Positions 1,226 through 9,732 of a stretch of DNA of 9,732 nt are shown here, one piece after another. Source of the DNA: a virus (Duplodnaviria > Heunggongvirae > Uroviricota > Caudoviricetes); IMG/VR virus record IMGVR_UViG_2703718824_000010, positions 1 through 9,732 of that record. One strand, given 5' to 3'. Under the pieces are notes generated by a model, which saw only the letters and a list, made by a program, of their open reading frames with translations, did not search any database and was not told the origin of the DNA. Each line of letters opens with the position of its first letter. The stretch's first letter is position 1. Made by a program: the position numbers and the translations under genes.

Positions 1226-1317
1226 AAACGGTTTGCGGGGAAAGAAGAGTTAAGTAGAATTGCTGCGGGTGCTTGAGGCTGTCTGCCTCGGGCATGCCGC
1301 CGTAAGGCAGACAGAGA

Positions 1318-1395
1318 AAAGCCCCAGTTAACATTACGCGTCTTGCAGGACGCTTAACATTAATCTGAGGCCCAATCTATGCTTCACAAACGTAG
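1318..1395 (-). ncRNA. candidate Sok-like antisense RNA opposite the mok start region
   Basis: Minus strand has a possible promoter (TTGCCT, 17 nt, TAACCT) right of the mok start and an imperfect hairpin followed by a U-run (GGGGCUUUUCUCUG) ending near 1320. Placed by analogy to hok/sok; boundaries approximate. Confidence 0.3.
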
Positions 1396-1591
1396 GTTAG
1401 CCTCTTACGTGCCGAAAGGCAAGGAGAAGCAGGCTATGAAGCAGCAAAAGGCGATGTTAATCGCCCTGATCGTCATCTGTATTACCGTTGTTGTGACGGC
1501 ACTGGTAACGAGGAAAGACCTCTGCGAGGTACGAATCCGAACCGGCCAGACGGAGGTTGCTGTCTTCGTAGACTACGAATCTGAGAAGTAA
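1379..1591 (+). CDS. Mok-like in-frame N-terminal extension of hok (70 aa)
   Basis: ATG 1379 is in frame with hok and adds 19 codons (MLHKRRLASYVPKGKEKQA), the arrangement recalled for chromosomal mok/hok pairs. Weak SD CTGAGG upstream. Confidence 0.45.
   Translation: MLHKRRLASYVPKGKEKQAMKQQKAMLIALIVICITVVVTALVTRKDLCEVRIRTGQTEVAVFVDYESEK
1436..1591 (+). CDS. hok: Hok/Gef family type I toxin (51 aa membrane peptide)
   Basis: MKQQKAMLIALIVICITVVVTALVTRKDLCEVRIRTGQTEVAVFVDYESEK: transmembrane segment followed by the TRKDLCEV.IRTGQTEVA motif characteristic of Hok/Gef/RelF. SD AAGGAGAAG (1421..1429) before ATG 1436. Confidence 0.85.
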   Translation: MKQQKAMLIALIVICITVVVTALVTRKDLCEVRIRTGQTEVAVFVDYESEK

Positions 1592-5766: not shown

Positions 5767-6825
5767 ATGCTTAATACTGTAAAAATATCCAGTTGTGAGT
5801 TAATCAACGCCGACTGCCTGGAATTTATCCGGTCGTTACCCGAAAATTCTGTTGACCTGATAGTCACGGACCCGCCGTACTTTAAAGTGAAGCCTGAGGG
5901 CTGGGATAACCAGTGGAAGGGCGACGATGATTACCTGAAGTGGCTGGACCAGTGTCTGGCGCAGTTCTGGCGGGTGCTGAAACCTGCCGGAAGTCTTTAC
6001 CTGTTCTGTGGCCATCGCCTGGCATCTGACATTGAAATCATGATGCGTGAACGCTTCAGTGTGCTGAACCATATTATCTGGGCGAAGCCGTCCGGACGCT
6101 GGAACGGGTGCAACAAGGAAAGCCTGAGGGCGTATTTCCCCGCCACAGAGCGCATTCTGTTCGCGGAACATTATCAGGGGCCGTATCGTCCGAAAGATGC
6201 CGGGTATGAGGCGAAGGGCAGGGCACTGAAACAGCATGTGATGGCCCCGCTGATTGCTTACTTTCGTGATGCACGTGCTGCCCTGGGGATAACGGCAAAA
6301 CAGATTGCTGATGCCACAGGAAAGAAAAACATGGTGTCGCACTGGTTCAGTGCCAGTCAGTGGCAGCTACCGGACGAAAGCGATTATCTGAAATTACAGG
6401 CGCTGTTTGCCCGGGTGGCAGAAGAGAAGCATCAGCGCGGAGAACTGGAAAAGCCACATCACCAACTGGTCAGCACATACAGTGAACTGAACCGACACTA
6501 TACGGAACTGCAGAGTGAATATAAGCATCTGCGGCGGTATTTCGGTGTGACGGCGCAGGTGCCGTACACCGATGTGTGGACGCATAAACCGGTGCAGTAC
6601 TATCCCGGGAAACATCCGTGCGAAAAACCGGCAGAAATGCTGCAGCAGATAATCAGCGCGAGCAGTCGTCCGGGTGACCTGGTTGCAGATTTTTTCATGG
6701 GGTCGGGTTCGACAGTCAAAGCAGCGATGGCGCTGGGGCGTCGTGCAACTGGCGTTGAGCTGGAGACTGAACGTTTTGAGCAGACGGTCAGGGAAGTTCA
6801 GGATTTAGCCAGTCAGAACGGATGA
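5767..6825 (+). CDS. beta-class DNA N6-adenine/N4-cytosine methyltransferase (352 aa), phage Dam-like orphan methylase
   Basis: Motif IV DPPY near the N-terminus (LIVTDPPYF) and motif I FxGxG near the C-terminus (DFFMGSGSTVKAA), the beta-class order typical of the N6_N4_Mtase family. ATG 5767 is the first start after an in-frame TGA. Confidence 0.9.
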   Translation: MLNTVKISSCELINADCLEFIRSLPENSVDLIVTDPPYFKVKPEGWDNQWKGDDDYLKWLDQCLAQFWRVLKPAGSLYLFCGHRLASDIEIMMRERFSVLNHIIWAKPSGRWNGCNKESLRAYFPATERILFAEHYQGPYRPKDAGYEAKGRALKQHVMAPLIAYFRDARAALGITAKQIADATGKKNMVSHWFSASQWQLPDESDYLKLQALFARVAEEKHQRGELEKPHHQLVSTYSELNRHYTELQSEYKHLRRYFGVTAQVPYTDVWTHKPVQYYPGKHPCEKPAEMLQQIISASSRPGDLVADFFMGSGSTVKAAMALGRRATGVELETERFEQTVREVQDLASQNG

Positions 6826-6865: not shown

Positions 6866-6941
6866 GGCCCTTTAGCTCAGTGGTGAGAGCGAGCGACTCA
6901 TAATCGCCAGGTCGCTGGTTCAAATCCAGCAAGGGCCACCA
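6866..6941 (+). tRNA. tRNA with anticodon CAU (Met, or Ile2 if lysidine-modified; ileZ-like in Stx phages)
   Basis: Hand-folded cloverleaf: acceptor GGCCCTT/AAGGGCC, D-arm GCTC..GAGC, anticodon loop CTCATAA, T-arm GCTGG-TTCAAAT-CCAGC, encoded 3' CCA. Confidence 0.9.
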
Positions 6942-6948
6942 TCACATA

Positions 6949-7025
6949 CCGCCATTAGCTCATCGGGATAGAGCGCCAGCCTTCGAAGCTGGTTGCGCGG
7001 GGTTCGAGTCCTCGATGGCGGTCCA
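6949..7025 (+). tRNA. tRNA-Arg (anticodon UCG)
   Basis: Acceptor CCGCCAT/ATGGCGG, anticodon stem CCAGC/GCTGG with loop CTTCGAA, T-loop TTCGAGT, encoded CCA. Confidence 0.85.
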
Positions 7026-7038
7026 TTATCTGTACACT

Positions 7039-7115
7039 GCGTTGTTAGCTCAGCCGGACAGAGCAATTGCCTTCTAAGCAATCGGTCACTGGTTCGAATC
7101 CAGTACAACGCACCA
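7039..7115 (+). tRNA. tRNA-Arg (anticodon UCU)
   Basis: Acceptor GCGTTGT/ACAACGC, anticodon stem ATTGC/GCAAT with loop CTTCTAA, T-arm ACTGG-TTCGAAT-CCAGT, encoded CCA. Confidence 0.9.
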
Positions 7116-7200: not shown

Positions 7201-8136
7201 ATGGTTTTTCAGGAGTCCAATAATCGCGATGTCGCCAGAAAATACGCAGAGTACATCACGTCCGTTCCTTTGCGTCGGTTTGTCGCTGAAAAAGTGCGGG
7301 AATATTGTGGTGATCTGCCCCTGAGTATTTTTGATGGTGCGTGTGGCTCCGGGCAACTGGAGCAGTTTCTCACGGTGGGAAGTCTGTATGCTGTGGATAT
7401 ACAGGCCTCTCCGTTGTTGCATATCCCGGATAATTTCCCGGATGCCACAGTGAAGACGGTCAATGAAAATTTCTTCAACGCCATCGATGATGTCAGTGAC
7501 ACGGACACGTTCGATTGTGTCATCATGAATCCGCCTTTTTCGCTACAGTACAAAGCACAGAGCGCGGATATCAGGGAGAAGATTTCAGCGATGATGCCTT
7601 ATAAAAAGACCTCCGGTGTTCTGGATGACGCGTTTTATGTTCTGGCGAGCATGAAGGCAAGATTTTCATTTTTTTTGTGCTTTCCCGGGGTTGGTTACAG
7701 GCGTGGTGAGCTGGCAATGCGTCAGTATTTTGGCAACCGCGTTGTTGAGTTGGTTCAGATTTCAGGCGGGTTCGCTGATACATCGGTTTCTGTATTATTC
7801 GTCATTATTGATAACGAAAAGCAAAGCGATGATGTTGTTGTTTATGGCGTCGGGTTTAATGGGGAAACTTGCAAAAAGTCAGCGCCGGTGACGGAGAAGA
7901 TTAACACAGACAACTGGAACAGGCCGTACATTGCTGAAGAGAAGGAGGTCATTGACATTGTACAGGTGACGGCTGAGTTGCTTGTAAGGCAAACAAGAAG
8001 ACGGAAACTTGAAGATGAGCATAACGCCTTTGTGTGGTCCTTAATGAGTGATGATCAGCGGACGGAGGTTTCCCGTTTTCTGTCAGTGCACGGTTTGTTT
8101 TTTGATGCCGGTTCAGGTTGTGTGCACATACGTTAA
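7201..8136 (+). CDS. gamma-order SAM-dependent N6-adenine methyltransferase-like protein (311 aa from ATG 7201; the track's ORF opens at GTG 7141, too close to the tRNA)
   Basis: Motif I FDGACGSGQLEQF (like HsdM DPACGSGGFL) lies upstream of motif IV DCVIMNPPF, the gamma-class order. No signal peptide and no Stx-like features. No obvious SD before 7201. It is short for a DNA methyltransferase with a full target-recognition domain. Confidence 0.7.
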   Translation: MVFQESNNRDVARKYAEYITSVPLRRFVAEKVREYCGDLPLSIFDGACGSGQLEQFLTVGSLYAVDIQASPLLHIPDNFPDATVKTVNENFFNAIDDVSDTDTFDCVIMNPPFSLQYKAQSADIREKISAMMPYKKTSGVLDDAFYVLASMKARFSFFLCFPGVGYRRGELAMRQYFGNRVVELVQISGGFADTSVSVLFVIIDNEKQSDDVVVYGVGFNGETCKKSAPVTEKINTDNWNRPYIAEEKEVIDIVQVTAELLVRQTRRRKLEDEHNAFVWSLMSDDQRTEVSRFLSVHGLFFDAGSGCVHIR

Positions 8137-8200
8137 ATCTGGTGCCGGTCGCTGGTTGCCGGTGTCGTGATGATTGTCTTCCTGTTGCCCCGAAAATTTT

Positions 8201-8439
8201 AAATGTCTCACAATTCAGACGGTTGACAGTTGTCTGATTTGCGGGGAGTTTGTTAAAAGAAACTGGCATGGTGAATCCCCCTGAGCGGAGGGGCATATCA
8301 GCGACAGGTGTTTGGTTACATCCCTTATCCTTTCTGTGCGGGTTCAGGTGCTGATACTGAACTCACCGGGAGGCACCCGGCACCATGCGCATGATGATAC
8401 AGATACGCAGCGTCAGCCCCTCTCCGGAGGGGCTTTTCT
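8201..8439 (+). repeat. structured non-coding module, copy A (candidate sRNA gene): conserved 5' box, two hairpins, intrinsic terminator
   Basis: Shares ordered blocks with copy B: CTCACAATTCAG, TTTGTTAAAA (extended -10-like), hairpin CCCCT-GAGCGG-AGGGG (8276..8294), CTGAACTCACCGGGAGGCACCCGGCA (hairpin 8366..8380), and terminator AGCCCCTC/TCCG/GAGGGGCT+TTTCT (8415..8439). Candidate ORFs inside are not conserved between copies. Confidence 0.5.
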
Positions 8440-8512
8440 GTGCCGGATACATCACAGTTTCTGGAACCTTGGGTACTACAGTATCAGTCAGGGTGCTATA
8501 TTTTCAGATGTG

Positions 8513-8614
8513 ATGAAAGCCTGTCAGCAGGCAGGGCGTATCGGAAATGACCCAGTAGAGAAAACGTTGACTCAGATACCGGTGCTGAGTTACCGGGAAA
8601 CCGGCATCACATGA
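8513..8614 (+). CDS. possible 33-codon small ORF (MKACQQAGRIGNDPVEKTLTQIPVLSYRETGIT), speculative
   Basis: Extended -10 TGcTATATT at 8494..8502 just upstream and a terminator just downstream, but no SD. The longer 100-aa track ORF (8312..8614) runs through the copy A hairpins and terminator and is rejected. Confidence 0.2.
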   Translation: MKACQQAGRIGNDPVEKTLTQIPVLSYRETGIT

Positions 8615-8628
8615 CCGCTATCCTTCCA

Positions 8629-8656
8629 GGCCCGTCCGCTCCGGTGGGCCTTTTTA
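8629..8656 (+). terminator. intrinsic terminator (GGCCCGTCCG / CTC / CGGTGGGCC + TTTTT)
   Basis: GC-rich imperfect stem followed by five T residues. Confidence 0.5.
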
Positions 8657-8679
8657 CTGCAGAAAACAGGTTCCCCGTT

Positions 8680-8929
8680 AAATGCTATGTTGCTCACAAT
8701 TCAGTCAGTTGAAGGTTGTCTTCCCGACTGAGAATTTGTTAAAAAATTTCTGCATGATGAATCCCCCTGTGCGGAGGGGCGGCTGGTGTACGGAATGGTC
8801 TCTGATGATCGTTAGCGAGAATGACGCGGGTTCGGTGGCACCGGGCTGAACTCACCGGGAGGCACCCGGCATCATGTAATGAACGGTACATAGCGCTACT
8901 CTTCAGCCCCTCTCCGGAGGGGCTTTCTT
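8680..8929 (+). repeat. structured non-coding module, copy B (candidate sRNA gene), paralogous to copy A
   Basis: Same block order as copy A: CTCACAATTCAG, TTTGTTAAAA, hairpin CCCCT-GTGCGG-AGGGG (8764..8780), CTGAACTCACCGGGAGGCACCCGGCA (8849..8870), terminator AGCCCCTC/TCCG/GAGGGGCT+TTCTT (8905..8929). The stretches between blocks have diverged. Confidence 0.5.
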
Positions 8930-8933
8930 ATGG

Positions 8934-8964
8934 ATAAAAAAAGCCCGCATGGTGAGATGCGGGC
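8934..8964 (-). terminator. hairpin GCCCGCAT / GGTGAG / ATGCGGGC preceded by an A-run on +, i.e. a minus-strand intrinsic terminator (or insulator)
   Basis: 8-bp perfect stem. The + strand has AAAAAAA upstream and no T-run downstream, so it would terminate leftward minus-strand transcription. Confidence 0.4.
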
Positions 8965-9161
8965 AGCAAGGAATAAACAACAAAACGTGAAGTAATCAAT
9001 TTTTCAGCTGGAGAATAATACCCGACAGTAATCACTCTGCGCAACTGCGCGGCCTTTTTCGTATTGCGGGCTGTAGTCTTCCTCCTGCCATTGTCCTGTA
9101 ACTTCCGGACTTCAGCCCGCCCCTCATCTGACTCACAACATTATCCCGACCGGGAGGATTC

Positions 9162-9732
9162 ATGGCATTTAAACACTATGACGTGGTCAGGGCGGCGTCG
9201 CCGTCAGACCTTGCGGAGCGACTGACTCAAAAACTGAAGGAGGGGTGGCAGCCATTTGGCAGTCCTGTCGCCATCACGCCTTATACCCTGATGCAGGCCA
9301 TTGCGGCGGAAGGTGATGTCACCACACCTGTGTTAGTGAAGCCGTCGGCTGGAGAAGGCACAGTAATCAGCGCCACCAGAGACCCGGAGTATTACTTTGT
9401 TGTGGTTCTGGCGGGGCAGTCAAACAGCATGGCATATGGTGAAGGCCTTCCGCTGCCGGAGACATATGACCGTCCGGACCCGCGTATTAAGCAGCTGGCG
9501 CGCCGCAGTACAGTGACACCGGGTGGTGCCGCCTGTAAGTATAACGACATTATTCCGGCGGACTATTGTCTGCATGATGTGCAGGACATGAGCCGTCTTA
9601 ACCATCCGAAAGCGGACCTGTCAAAGGGGCAGTACGGAACCGTGGGGCAGGGGCTGCATATCGCCAAAAAACTGCTGCCGTTTATACCGGCGAATGCGGG
9701 TATTTTGCTGGTTCCGTGCTGCCGTGGTGCTT
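9162..9732 (+). CDS. nanS-p: NanS-p-like sialate O-acetylesterase (N-terminal DUF1737 plus start of SGNH/SASA domain); partial, continues past the window
   Basis: GGGAGG (9152..9157) before ATG 9162. The N-terminus MAFKHYDVVRAASPSDLAERLTQKLKEGWQPFGSPVAITPY matches the DUF1737 start of Stx-prophage NanS-p/YjhS-like esterases as recalled. A GQSN block (SGNH block I) follows. Open to the window edge. Confidence 0.8.
   Translation, partial: MAFKHYDVVRAASPSDLAERLTQKLKEGWQPFGSPVAITPYTLMQAIAAEGDVTTPVLVKPSAGEGTVISATRDPEYYFVVVLAGQSNSMAYGEGLPLPETYDRPDPRIKQLARRSTVTPGGAACKYNDIIPADYCLHDVQDMSRLNHPKADLSKGQYGTVGQGLHIAKKLLPFIPANAGILLVPCCRGA

Follow-up and report, generated by a model that had tools for sequence, protein, structure and literature searches.

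A probable tandem array of three STnc100/PasD-type small RNA genes in the late region of a Shiga-toxigenic Escherichia coli prophage

Two repeated, structured modules that end in the same intrinsic terminator lie between a methyltransferase gene (upstream) and the nanS-p esterase gene (downstream) of an Escherichia coli prophage, in a stretch over which RefSeq annotates no gene (positions 10038–11062 of locus L001, corresponding to about 8137–9162 of the window). The question raised by this locus is what the modules encode, if anything, and whether they act as RNA, as DNA or through a protein product. We consider it quite probable that the stretch is a tandem array of three paralogous small RNA (sRNA) genes of the STnc100/PasD type, A (8266–8440), M (8508–8656) and B (8752–8931), which would operate by the mechanism outlined below.

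The window, i.e., the whole stretch of DNA that was analysed (9,732 nt), is late-region sequence from a Shiga-toxigenic E. coli lambdoid prophage, with the array at the moron site, and is 100% identical to a prophage locus of E. coli 2013C-3033 (NZ_CP027323). The annotated gene order in NZ_CP027323 runs from the Q antiterminator through a PemK/MazF toxin, a DNA methyltransferase, tRNA-Ile/Arg/Arg and a SAM-dependent methyltransferase to an unannotated gap of about 1 kb, which is the array, and continues with the SASA (nanS-p) esterase, a holin and a lysozyme. This order places the array in a prophage late region at a moron site, which is the location given for Rfam family RF02076. In an Stx2a phage, stx2AB is found in place of the second methyltransferase gene, followed by one STnc100 unit and then by the same type of convergent RNA as here; because stx2AB occupies the methyltransferase position, the array can be assigned to the moron site of the Q-dependent late operon. 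Outside the array, an Rfam scan of the window returned a sok RNA and three tRNA genes. Terminator-like sites are frequent in the region 7800–9300, where eight are found as compared with 1.3 expected from shuffled sequences.

The sequence-only reading of this stretch had described two paralogous modules with shared blocks in identical order, and inspection of 7800–9732 finds every block in both copies; a repeat finder and pairwise alignment recover the same blocks. On the plus strand these are CTCACAATTCAG (8207–8218 in A, 8693–8704 in B), TTTGTTAAAA (8249–8258 and 8735–8744), the hairpin CCCCCTG(A/T)GCGGAGGGG (8277–8293 and 8763–8779), CTGAACTCACCGGGAGGCACCCGGCA (8357–8382 and 8846–8871), and an identical 20-nt terminator AGCCCCTCTCCGGAGGGGCT (8415–8434 and 8905–8924) followed by short T-runs. 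The hairpin is indeed present in both copies, but its variable loop base is A or T rather than G or T as first described. A covariance-model search against Rfam, which had been suggested as a check, identifies both modules as full-length matches to RF02076 (STnc100), for which the curated gathering score is 47 bits: unit A matches at 8237–8443 with 134.9 bits (E 2.5e-30) and unit B at 8723–8935 with 164.6 bits (E 6e-38), each over model positions 1–206; similarity of this degree greatly exceeds chance. Our own covariance model of the 5′ domain, R1, built from 17 diverse units and comprising 128 positions with 29 pairs, gives 121.4 bits for unit A and 125.1 bits for unit B. The A and B modules are copies of the catalogued prophage small RNA STnc100, related to EcOnc27 and PasD from pathogenic E. 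coli. As delimited by RF02076, R1 and the minimum-free-energy fold, unit A (8266–8440, plus strand) consists of a five-helix 5′ domain (8266–8388), a linker that is the candidate seed (8389–8414), and the terminator (8415–8434) with its UUUUCU tail. Unit B (8752–8931, plus strand), delimited by RF02076, R1 and its fold, has the corresponding parts at 8752–8877 (5′ domain), 8878–8904 (linker, candidate seed) and 8905–8924 (terminator), with the tail UUCUUAU. The proposal of duplicated non-coding sRNA genes in a prophage late region is borne out by the curated-family match, the covariation, the lack of a conserved open reading frame (ORF) and the gene context. A and B are paralogous sRNA copies as claimed, but they are not a pair, since there are three units, with M between them.

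Unit M (about 8508–8656, plus strand) is a diverged member of the STnc100/PasD superfamily, recognised from a subthreshold Rfam match, R1 and its fold. It occupies the stretch that separates A and B, and has its own extended −10 element and its own terminator. In a permissive Rfam search of 8100–9200, unit M was matched at 8484–8657 with 28.5 bits (E 4.9e-4), which is below the gathering score of 47, and R1 matched it at 8508–8612 with 30.7 bits (E 3.4e-6, filters off). The family architecture is retained with different letters: the closing helix is formed by AUGUGAUG/CAUCACAU, which replaces GCAUGGUG/CACCAUGC, and encloses three internal hairpins (GCCUG/CAGGC, GACUCAG/CUGAGUU and CCGG/CCGG). 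A single-stranded linker at about 8613–8627, within GACCGCUAUCCUUCC, is followed by a terminator with a 9-bp stem (8628–8651) and U5, all on the plus strand. The single-sequence fold of unit M has the family architecture with a z-score of −2.4. Upstream, a putative TG-extended −10 element (TGcTATATT, 8494–8502, plus strand) can be read from the sequence, 6–8 nt before the first base of the closing helix as placed by R1. Of 5426 complete E. coli genomes, 673 (12%) contain unit M; it is annotated in no genome among the matches listed, and is missed by standard annotation.

Folded singly, A, B and M each give the family architecture at minimum free energy and reproduce the RF02076 consensus structure, a closing helix around several hairpins followed by a terminator. 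The 5′ domain is built from an 8-bp closing helix around four inner stems, one of which is a 3-bp stem enclosing a variable module.

Arrays of this kind recur. Searching IMG/VR for a 24-nt core yielded 119 loci, and R1 detected 156 units in the first 100 sources (the window, two PasD loci and 97 IMG/VR loci). The 102 arrays sampled comprise 74 singletons, 6 doublets, 20 triplets of the X-M-B kind found here, and 2 quadruplets. Among the complete E. coli genomes (5426), 353 match at least 80% of the full 751-nt array and 2711 contain some part of it; the exact arrangement with this methyltransferase gene occurs in only 12 genomes. An array that is 88% identical is known in an ST131-type strain. 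An 18-nt core is present in many other Enterobacterales genera. The same core also matches in Streptomyces and other high-GC taxa, where R1 finds no unit, and those matches are taken as chance.

The family is already documented experimentally through its homologues. Tree et al. 2014 described Hfq-bound convergent sRNA pairs at this position in eight or more Sakai prophages, and the sense RNA after stx2B is EcOnc27, or sRNA103 (PMC4104026). EcOnc27, EcOnc05 and EcOnc06 were detected both by Hfq-CRAC and on northern blots. According to Paganini et al., EcOnc27 overlaps an STnc100 annotation, and variants there predict haemolytic uraemic syndrome (PMC12711010). STnc100 homologues are Hfq-bound and have been seen on northern blots (PMC4104026, PMC8550237, PMC5331693); EDL933 has 11 STnc100 copies, of which STnc100_4 was confirmed by northern blot (PMC5331693). 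In EPEC, PasD1/2 of about 172 nt were found by RIL-seq and northern blot, are Hfq-stabilised, start at the homologous GCAUGG, and have a predicted seed just before the terminator (PMC8550237). Common ancestry of PasD and STnc100 has been proposed in a 2026 preprint. Among the units collected here, the EcOnc27 northern probe matches the class III STnc100 linker exactly, the EcOnc05 and EcOnc06 probes match an STnc100 5′ domain exactly, and the EcOnc04 probe matches another STnc100 tail with three mismatches.

Units A and B share the full RF02076 model, the structure, the position and the convergent partner with STnc100 as represented by EcOnc27 in Sp5/933W and EcOnc05/06 in Sakai, but there are three tandem units here, and the upstream moron is a methyltransferase gene instead of stx2. 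Sakai EcOnc27 also differs in having a class III linker, as compared with class I in A and class II in B. PasD1/PasD2 (EPEC E2348/69; EcOnc13 in Sakai) reach 41 and 38 bits with the STnc100 model, and PasD reaches 40.8 bits with R1. They share the 5′ start GCAUGGUGAAUCC, the closing helix, the order of hairpins and the single strand before the terminator, as well as a location downstream of Q and upstream of a nanS-type esterase gene or lysis genes. Neither the CCGGG/CCCGG hairpin nor the CTCACAATTCAG box is found in PasD. Its predicted seed, UUGUGAG in CCTTGTGAGTTCTGG, is absent from the window even when three mismatches are allowed, and only the architecture of the 5′ domain is common to both.

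The predicted promoters of units A and B are assigned with reference to the 5′ end of PasD. In unit A, the upstream control region (8197–8259, plus strand), identified by reading the sequence and by block conservation, contains the CTCACAATTCAG box (8207–8218), a −35-like TTGTCT (8230–8235), an 18-nt spacer, and a TG-extended −10 element TAAAAG (TG at 8251–8252, hexamer at 8254–8259). The control region of unit B (8683–8745, plus strand) has equal spacing, with the box at 8693–8704, TTGTCT at 8716–8721, TG at 8737–8738 and the −10 hexamer TAAAAA at 8740–8745. Across some 60 distinct upstream regions, these blocks are conserved and their spacing does not vary. The −35 elements of the array units are weak. 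The reported 5′ end of PasD2 is the G of GCATGGTGAATCC, and the homologous G in the window is at 8266 and 8752; the 5′ ends that had been predicted from the sequence, 8266 and 8748, are within 4 nt of these positions. In relatives from other genera, sigma-70-like −35/−10 matches are enriched at the corresponding place, with a mean best score of 6.0 as compared with 2.7 for shifted controls, and scores of at least 9/12 in 11% as compared with 2%. Homology to PasD and the promoter-like matches in other genera point to transcription beginning with the first base of the closing helix. The northern sizes reported for homologues, about 222 nt for EcOnc05 and about 235/247 nt for EcOnc27, are some 60 nt above the length from GCAUGG to the terminator, and together with homology that begins about 20 nt upstream of the CTCACAATTCAG box they suggest a second start near the box.

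A possible regulatory site overlaps the same region. When scored against the pattern TGTGA-N6-TCACA at the class I position, −61.5 from the start, CRP-like sites with 8/10 matches are found at 8197–8212 and 8683–8698, centred at −61.5 from the putative starts G8266 and G8752. Among 60 distinct E. coli phage upstream regions, 56 have a CRP-like site of 8–9/10 within about 4 nt of −61.5, and in 46 it is at −61.5 or −60.5. The second G of the left half is never present, and the whole window holds nine CRP-like matches as compared with 5.4 expected. Beyond the E. coli subfamily, relatives in other genera lack the CTCACAATTCAG box. That the box is the well-matched half of a CRP site is a weak lead, and it may also be read as a TGnTAAAT extended −10. 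The interval between the box and TTTGTTAAAA contains inverted repeats in every variant, but in differing registers, so that they do not define one common leader hairpin.

In the mechanism that we propose, each unit would be transcribed from its own weak TG-extended sigma-70 promoter and end at its own intrinsic terminator, and because of this combination a discrete RNA of about 150–180 nt would be produced from each unit in the lysogen, possibly with a second isoform that is about 60 nt longer. Each RNA would consist of the conserved five-helix 5′ domain, an unstructured linker of 15–27 nt, and the terminator hairpin, with linker and terminator serving as an Hfq-binding, base-pairing module; we infer that the RNAs depend on Hfq in this strain. 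During lytic growth, Q-modified RNA polymerase would override each of the three terminators and go on to transcribe nanS-p and the lysis genes.

The position of the array inside a Q-antiterminated late operon could also be taken to mean that the units are cis-acting elements of the late transcript, such as insulators, processing sites or stability elements, with the small RNAs of the homologues as by-products. The inverted repeats in varying registers upstream of each unit, some homologue transcripts that exceed unit length, and a 5′ domain that is conserved far beyond what a passive scaffold or a simple seed-plus-terminator RNA needs, are all compatible with such a role. A promoter-like element at a fixed distance from each unit, enriched in other genera too, speaks against it, as do homologues that are abundant in uninduced lysogens, stabilised by Hfq and found in chimeras with many mRNAs, and the presence of related units on a Pantoea plasmid, with arrays of up to six copies. 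We regard the cis-acting explanation as unlikely, and prefer that of separate sRNA genes.

For these sRNA genes, the distribution of conserved and variable parts is informative. Comparison of 30 representative units reveals a modular build, in which an invariant 5′ end and hairpin 1 are followed by the variable module with its covarying 3-bp stem, hairpins 3 and 4, the closing helix, the linker and the terminator. The linker of about 25 nt comes in a small number of discrete alleles, which recombination has joined to various 5′ domains: unit A has class I, unit B class II, Sakai EcOnc27 class III and unit M a type of its own, and the linker of the Stx2a phage Stx2_95 is a near variant of class I. 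In the homologue EcOnc27, the Hfq-CRAC peak at 1268411–1268490 covers, by coordinate estimate, the linker and the terminator. The linker is a likely base-pairing seed because it is covered by this peak and because the predicted PasD seed, too, immediately precedes the terminator. As the linkers differ among A, M and B, the three units probably act on different targets, which we predict to be different host or prophage mRNAs. Complementarity between the unit B linker and 7933–7944, and between the 5′ end and the nanS-p ribosome binding site, was considered and set aside as being within chance by a rough estimate. The T-runs of A and B are short and interrupted (UUUUCU and UUCUUAU), and weaker than the 3′ ends typical of Hfq-dependent sRNAs; since they are short, read-through between units is possible.

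The same modularity could be explained at the level of DNA, if the conserved blocks are recombination linkers for swaps of moron or 3′ modules, and the RNA is a passenger. Mosaicism is strong, with 5′ domains joined to different linkers and terminators and vice versa, and homology among units starts abruptly, about 20 nt upstream of the CTCACAATTCAG box, beside unrelated cargo (tRNA genes, stx2B or a methyltransferase gene). However, compensatory changes are found across all five helices of the 5′ domain, both in 57 distinct E. coli phage units and in 87 units from many Enterobacterales genera, and these indicate selection on RNA pairing and not on DNA identity only, as the sequence-only reading had proposed from the blocks. 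In the phage units, 99.1% of cells are paired and 20 of 29 pairs are changed on both sides, values that none of 500 shuffles reach, with 2–6 double-sided pairs in slid controls; in the cross-genus units, 95.3% of cells are paired as compared with 77.7% in shuffles, double-sided cells number 441 as compared with 119, and the covariation score is 0.475 as compared with 0.04–0.07 for slid partners. Both alignments were fitted to the model, which biases these figures toward pairing, but the margin over the controls is still large. The core of hairpin 4 is uninformative with respect to covariation because it was fixed by the search pattern. Roles in recombination and as RNA are not mutually exclusive; recombination with the RNA as a passenger is improbable, more so than the cis-acting explanation.

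That the ORFs of the modules are not conserved had been claimed at the outset, and conserved coding potential was looked for over 83 homologous units without being found. In a six-frame scan of these units, even the most open frame contains an ORF of 30 amino acids or more in just 44 of 83 (53%), domain lengths modulo 3 are distributed as 35/33/14, and a Pfam search with five overlapping ORFs gave no match. In unit B, the ATG is directly followed by TAA (8874–8879), as was described for one copy. A reading in which small proteins are made from the units, with translation starting at a conserved ATG that lies in the closing helix, on its 3′ strand (ORF 8385–8513 in unit A), or from ORF 8682–8849, could appeal to the SD-like GGGAGG located 11 nt upstream of that ATG, to ribosome footprints on some EDL933 copies, with ribosomal coverage values up to 3.2 (PMC5331693), and to hypothetical proteins annotated here in some phage records, but is rejected as highly improbable, since no frame is conserved, ORF lengths are inconsistent, domain lengths are spread modulo 3, Pfam gives no match, and the unit A ORF crosses the terminator, so that the terminated RNA would be without a stop codon.

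Facing unit B on the minus strand is a convergent RNA of the EcOnc08/21/42 type (8936–9048), delimited by terminator scan, fold and probe match, whose 5′ end may lie beyond 9048. Its terminator stem (8964–8943) is followed by U7 (8942–8936), and the fold shows a G/U-rich unstructured stretch upstream of the terminator. This RNA can be aligned to an sRNA found by RIL-seq in EPEC, 'E2348C_1409.E2348C_1408.IGR', and to its positional counterpart in the Stx2a phage, and the northern probe of Tree et al. 2014 for EcOnc08/21/42 matches 9014–9048 on the minus strand at 32 of 35 bases (three mismatches). As in the dyads described by Tree et al. (AsxR/AgvB and EcOnc08/21/42), a strong minus-strand terminator with U7 converges on the last STnc100 unit; the partner sequence differs from that in the AsxR/AgvB dyads and is of the EcOnc08/21/42 type. 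An identity as AsxR or AgvB was considered and rejected in favour of that type, as an Rfam search of 8100–9200 with RF02703 and RF02702 gave no match to their conserved 3′ region of about 42 nt at E values up to 10, and on alignment the sequence proves to be of another type. AsxR or AgvB does occupy this position in other loci that have the same array. In Sakai Sp4, EcOnc08 is located 24 nt from EcOnc05 on the opposite strand, and the Sakai RNA of the EcOnc08/21/42 type is about 271 nt long. At that length, the convergent RNA would overlap the nanS-p start codon (9163) in antisense orientation.

Paralogous sRNA genes that are adjacent or in several copies, and in which parts are conserved and the rest differs, as in this array, are known from OmrA/OmrB and Qrr-type sRNAs, which are core-genome regulators with known regulators and targets. 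The array is different in that conservation falls on a large structured 5′ domain and variation on the putative seed. A tentative and rather doubtful further reading is that the 5′ domain is a protein-recognised scaffold for interchangeable 3′ seeds, deployed in cassettes of two to six genes, with M as a third functional lineage beside STnc100 and PasD.

The initial observation is real and was read correctly, but the family has already been named and studied, and the locus does not represent a new kind of element. What the analysis adds by way of refinement is a third unit, evidence that the array recurs, the division of the linkers into alleles, and an identity for the convergent RNA. RNAs of the STnc100 type rank among the sRNAs most often annotated in enterobacterial genomes, and one copy lies directly after stx2B, with variants that are linked to the risk of haemolytic uraemic syndrome (PMC12711010). 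The window provides a compact case, in which three putative seeds, a diverged member that annotation has missed, and a conserved pairing with a convergent sRNA are found together. The known picture of the family is unchanged by this, and the features of the array could guide searches for targets.

Between the two tandem sRNA units of the STnc100/PasD superfamily, A and B, lies a third, diverged STnc100/PasD-like unit, M (8508–8656, plus strand), which has an extended –10 element and a terminator of its own. Its Rfam score falls below the gathering score for STnc100; the unit occurs in 673 of 5426 complete E. coli genomes, where it lacks annotation in those listed.

Units A and B are each preceded, at a constant spacing, by a conserved box, CTCACAATTCAG (regions 8197–8218 and 8683–8704, plus strand), the conservation of which is confined to the E. 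coli lambdoid subfamily. Two readings fit the box: a CRP-like site centred at –61.5, with 8/10 matches, or an extended –10 element (TGnTAAAT) together with the start of an RNA isoform longer than the unit. The interval from the box to TTTGTTAAAA contains inverted repeats on the plus strand, at 8216–8248 in unit A (TCAGAC/GTCTGA) and at 8701–8731 in unit B (TCAGTC/GACTGA and GAAG/CTTC). An inverted repeat of some kind occupies this interval in all family variants, in differing register.

A convergent RNA of the EcOnc08/21/42 type is encoded on the minus strand at 8936–9048, possibly extending to about 9200, and is also related to the EPEC sRNA 'E2348C_1409.E2348C_1408.IGR'. It comprises an unstructured G/U-rich stretch and a terminator ending in U7. 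If it were as long as reported for Sakai, roughly 271 nt, this RNA would run antisense across the start codon (9163) of nanS-p and its ribosome binding site. On the plus strand, TAAAAAAAGCCCGCATGGTGA (8935–8955) resembles unit A at its –10 element and 5′ end (TAAAAGAAACTGGCATGGTGA; 81% identity), and may derive from a former fourth unit, whose remnant would today lie within the terminator of the minus-strand RNA. The nanS-p 5′ leader contains two plus-strand structures (9037–9052 and 9066–9120), one an additional terminator-like hairpin, CTGCGCAACTGCGCGG with a T-run behind it, the other an inverted repeat of 13 nt around a 29-nt loop; both are kept in the Stx2a phage with only minor sequence differences.

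Elsewhere in the window, the early region of the prophage contains a hok/sok toxin–antitoxin module, made up of a full-length sok antitoxin RNA (1267–1441, plus strand; Rfam RF01794, 117.7 bits) beside an annotated hokD gene. Three tRNA genes carried by the phage (Ile, Arg, Arg; 6866–7112, plus strand) are flanked by DNA methyltransferase genes at 5767–6825 and about 7270–8136; in Stx2 phages, the slot of the second methyltransferase gene is instead held by stx2AB.

A diverged STnc100-like unit at two other loci (L096 12897–13031 and L115 12614–12748) scores 57.9 bits on R1, our covariance model of the 5′ domain. In L096 its setting is that of a Qin-like prophage, directly 3′ of a DicF RNA gene, and the STnc100/PasD superfamily is therefore also found beyond the moron site. 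Outside E. coli, arrays of 5–6 STnc100-like units within about 1–1.4 kb occur on a Pantoea sp. plasmid (L178 950–1988) and in L164 (3116–4485). Members of the STnc100 family are in general prone to tandem amplification.
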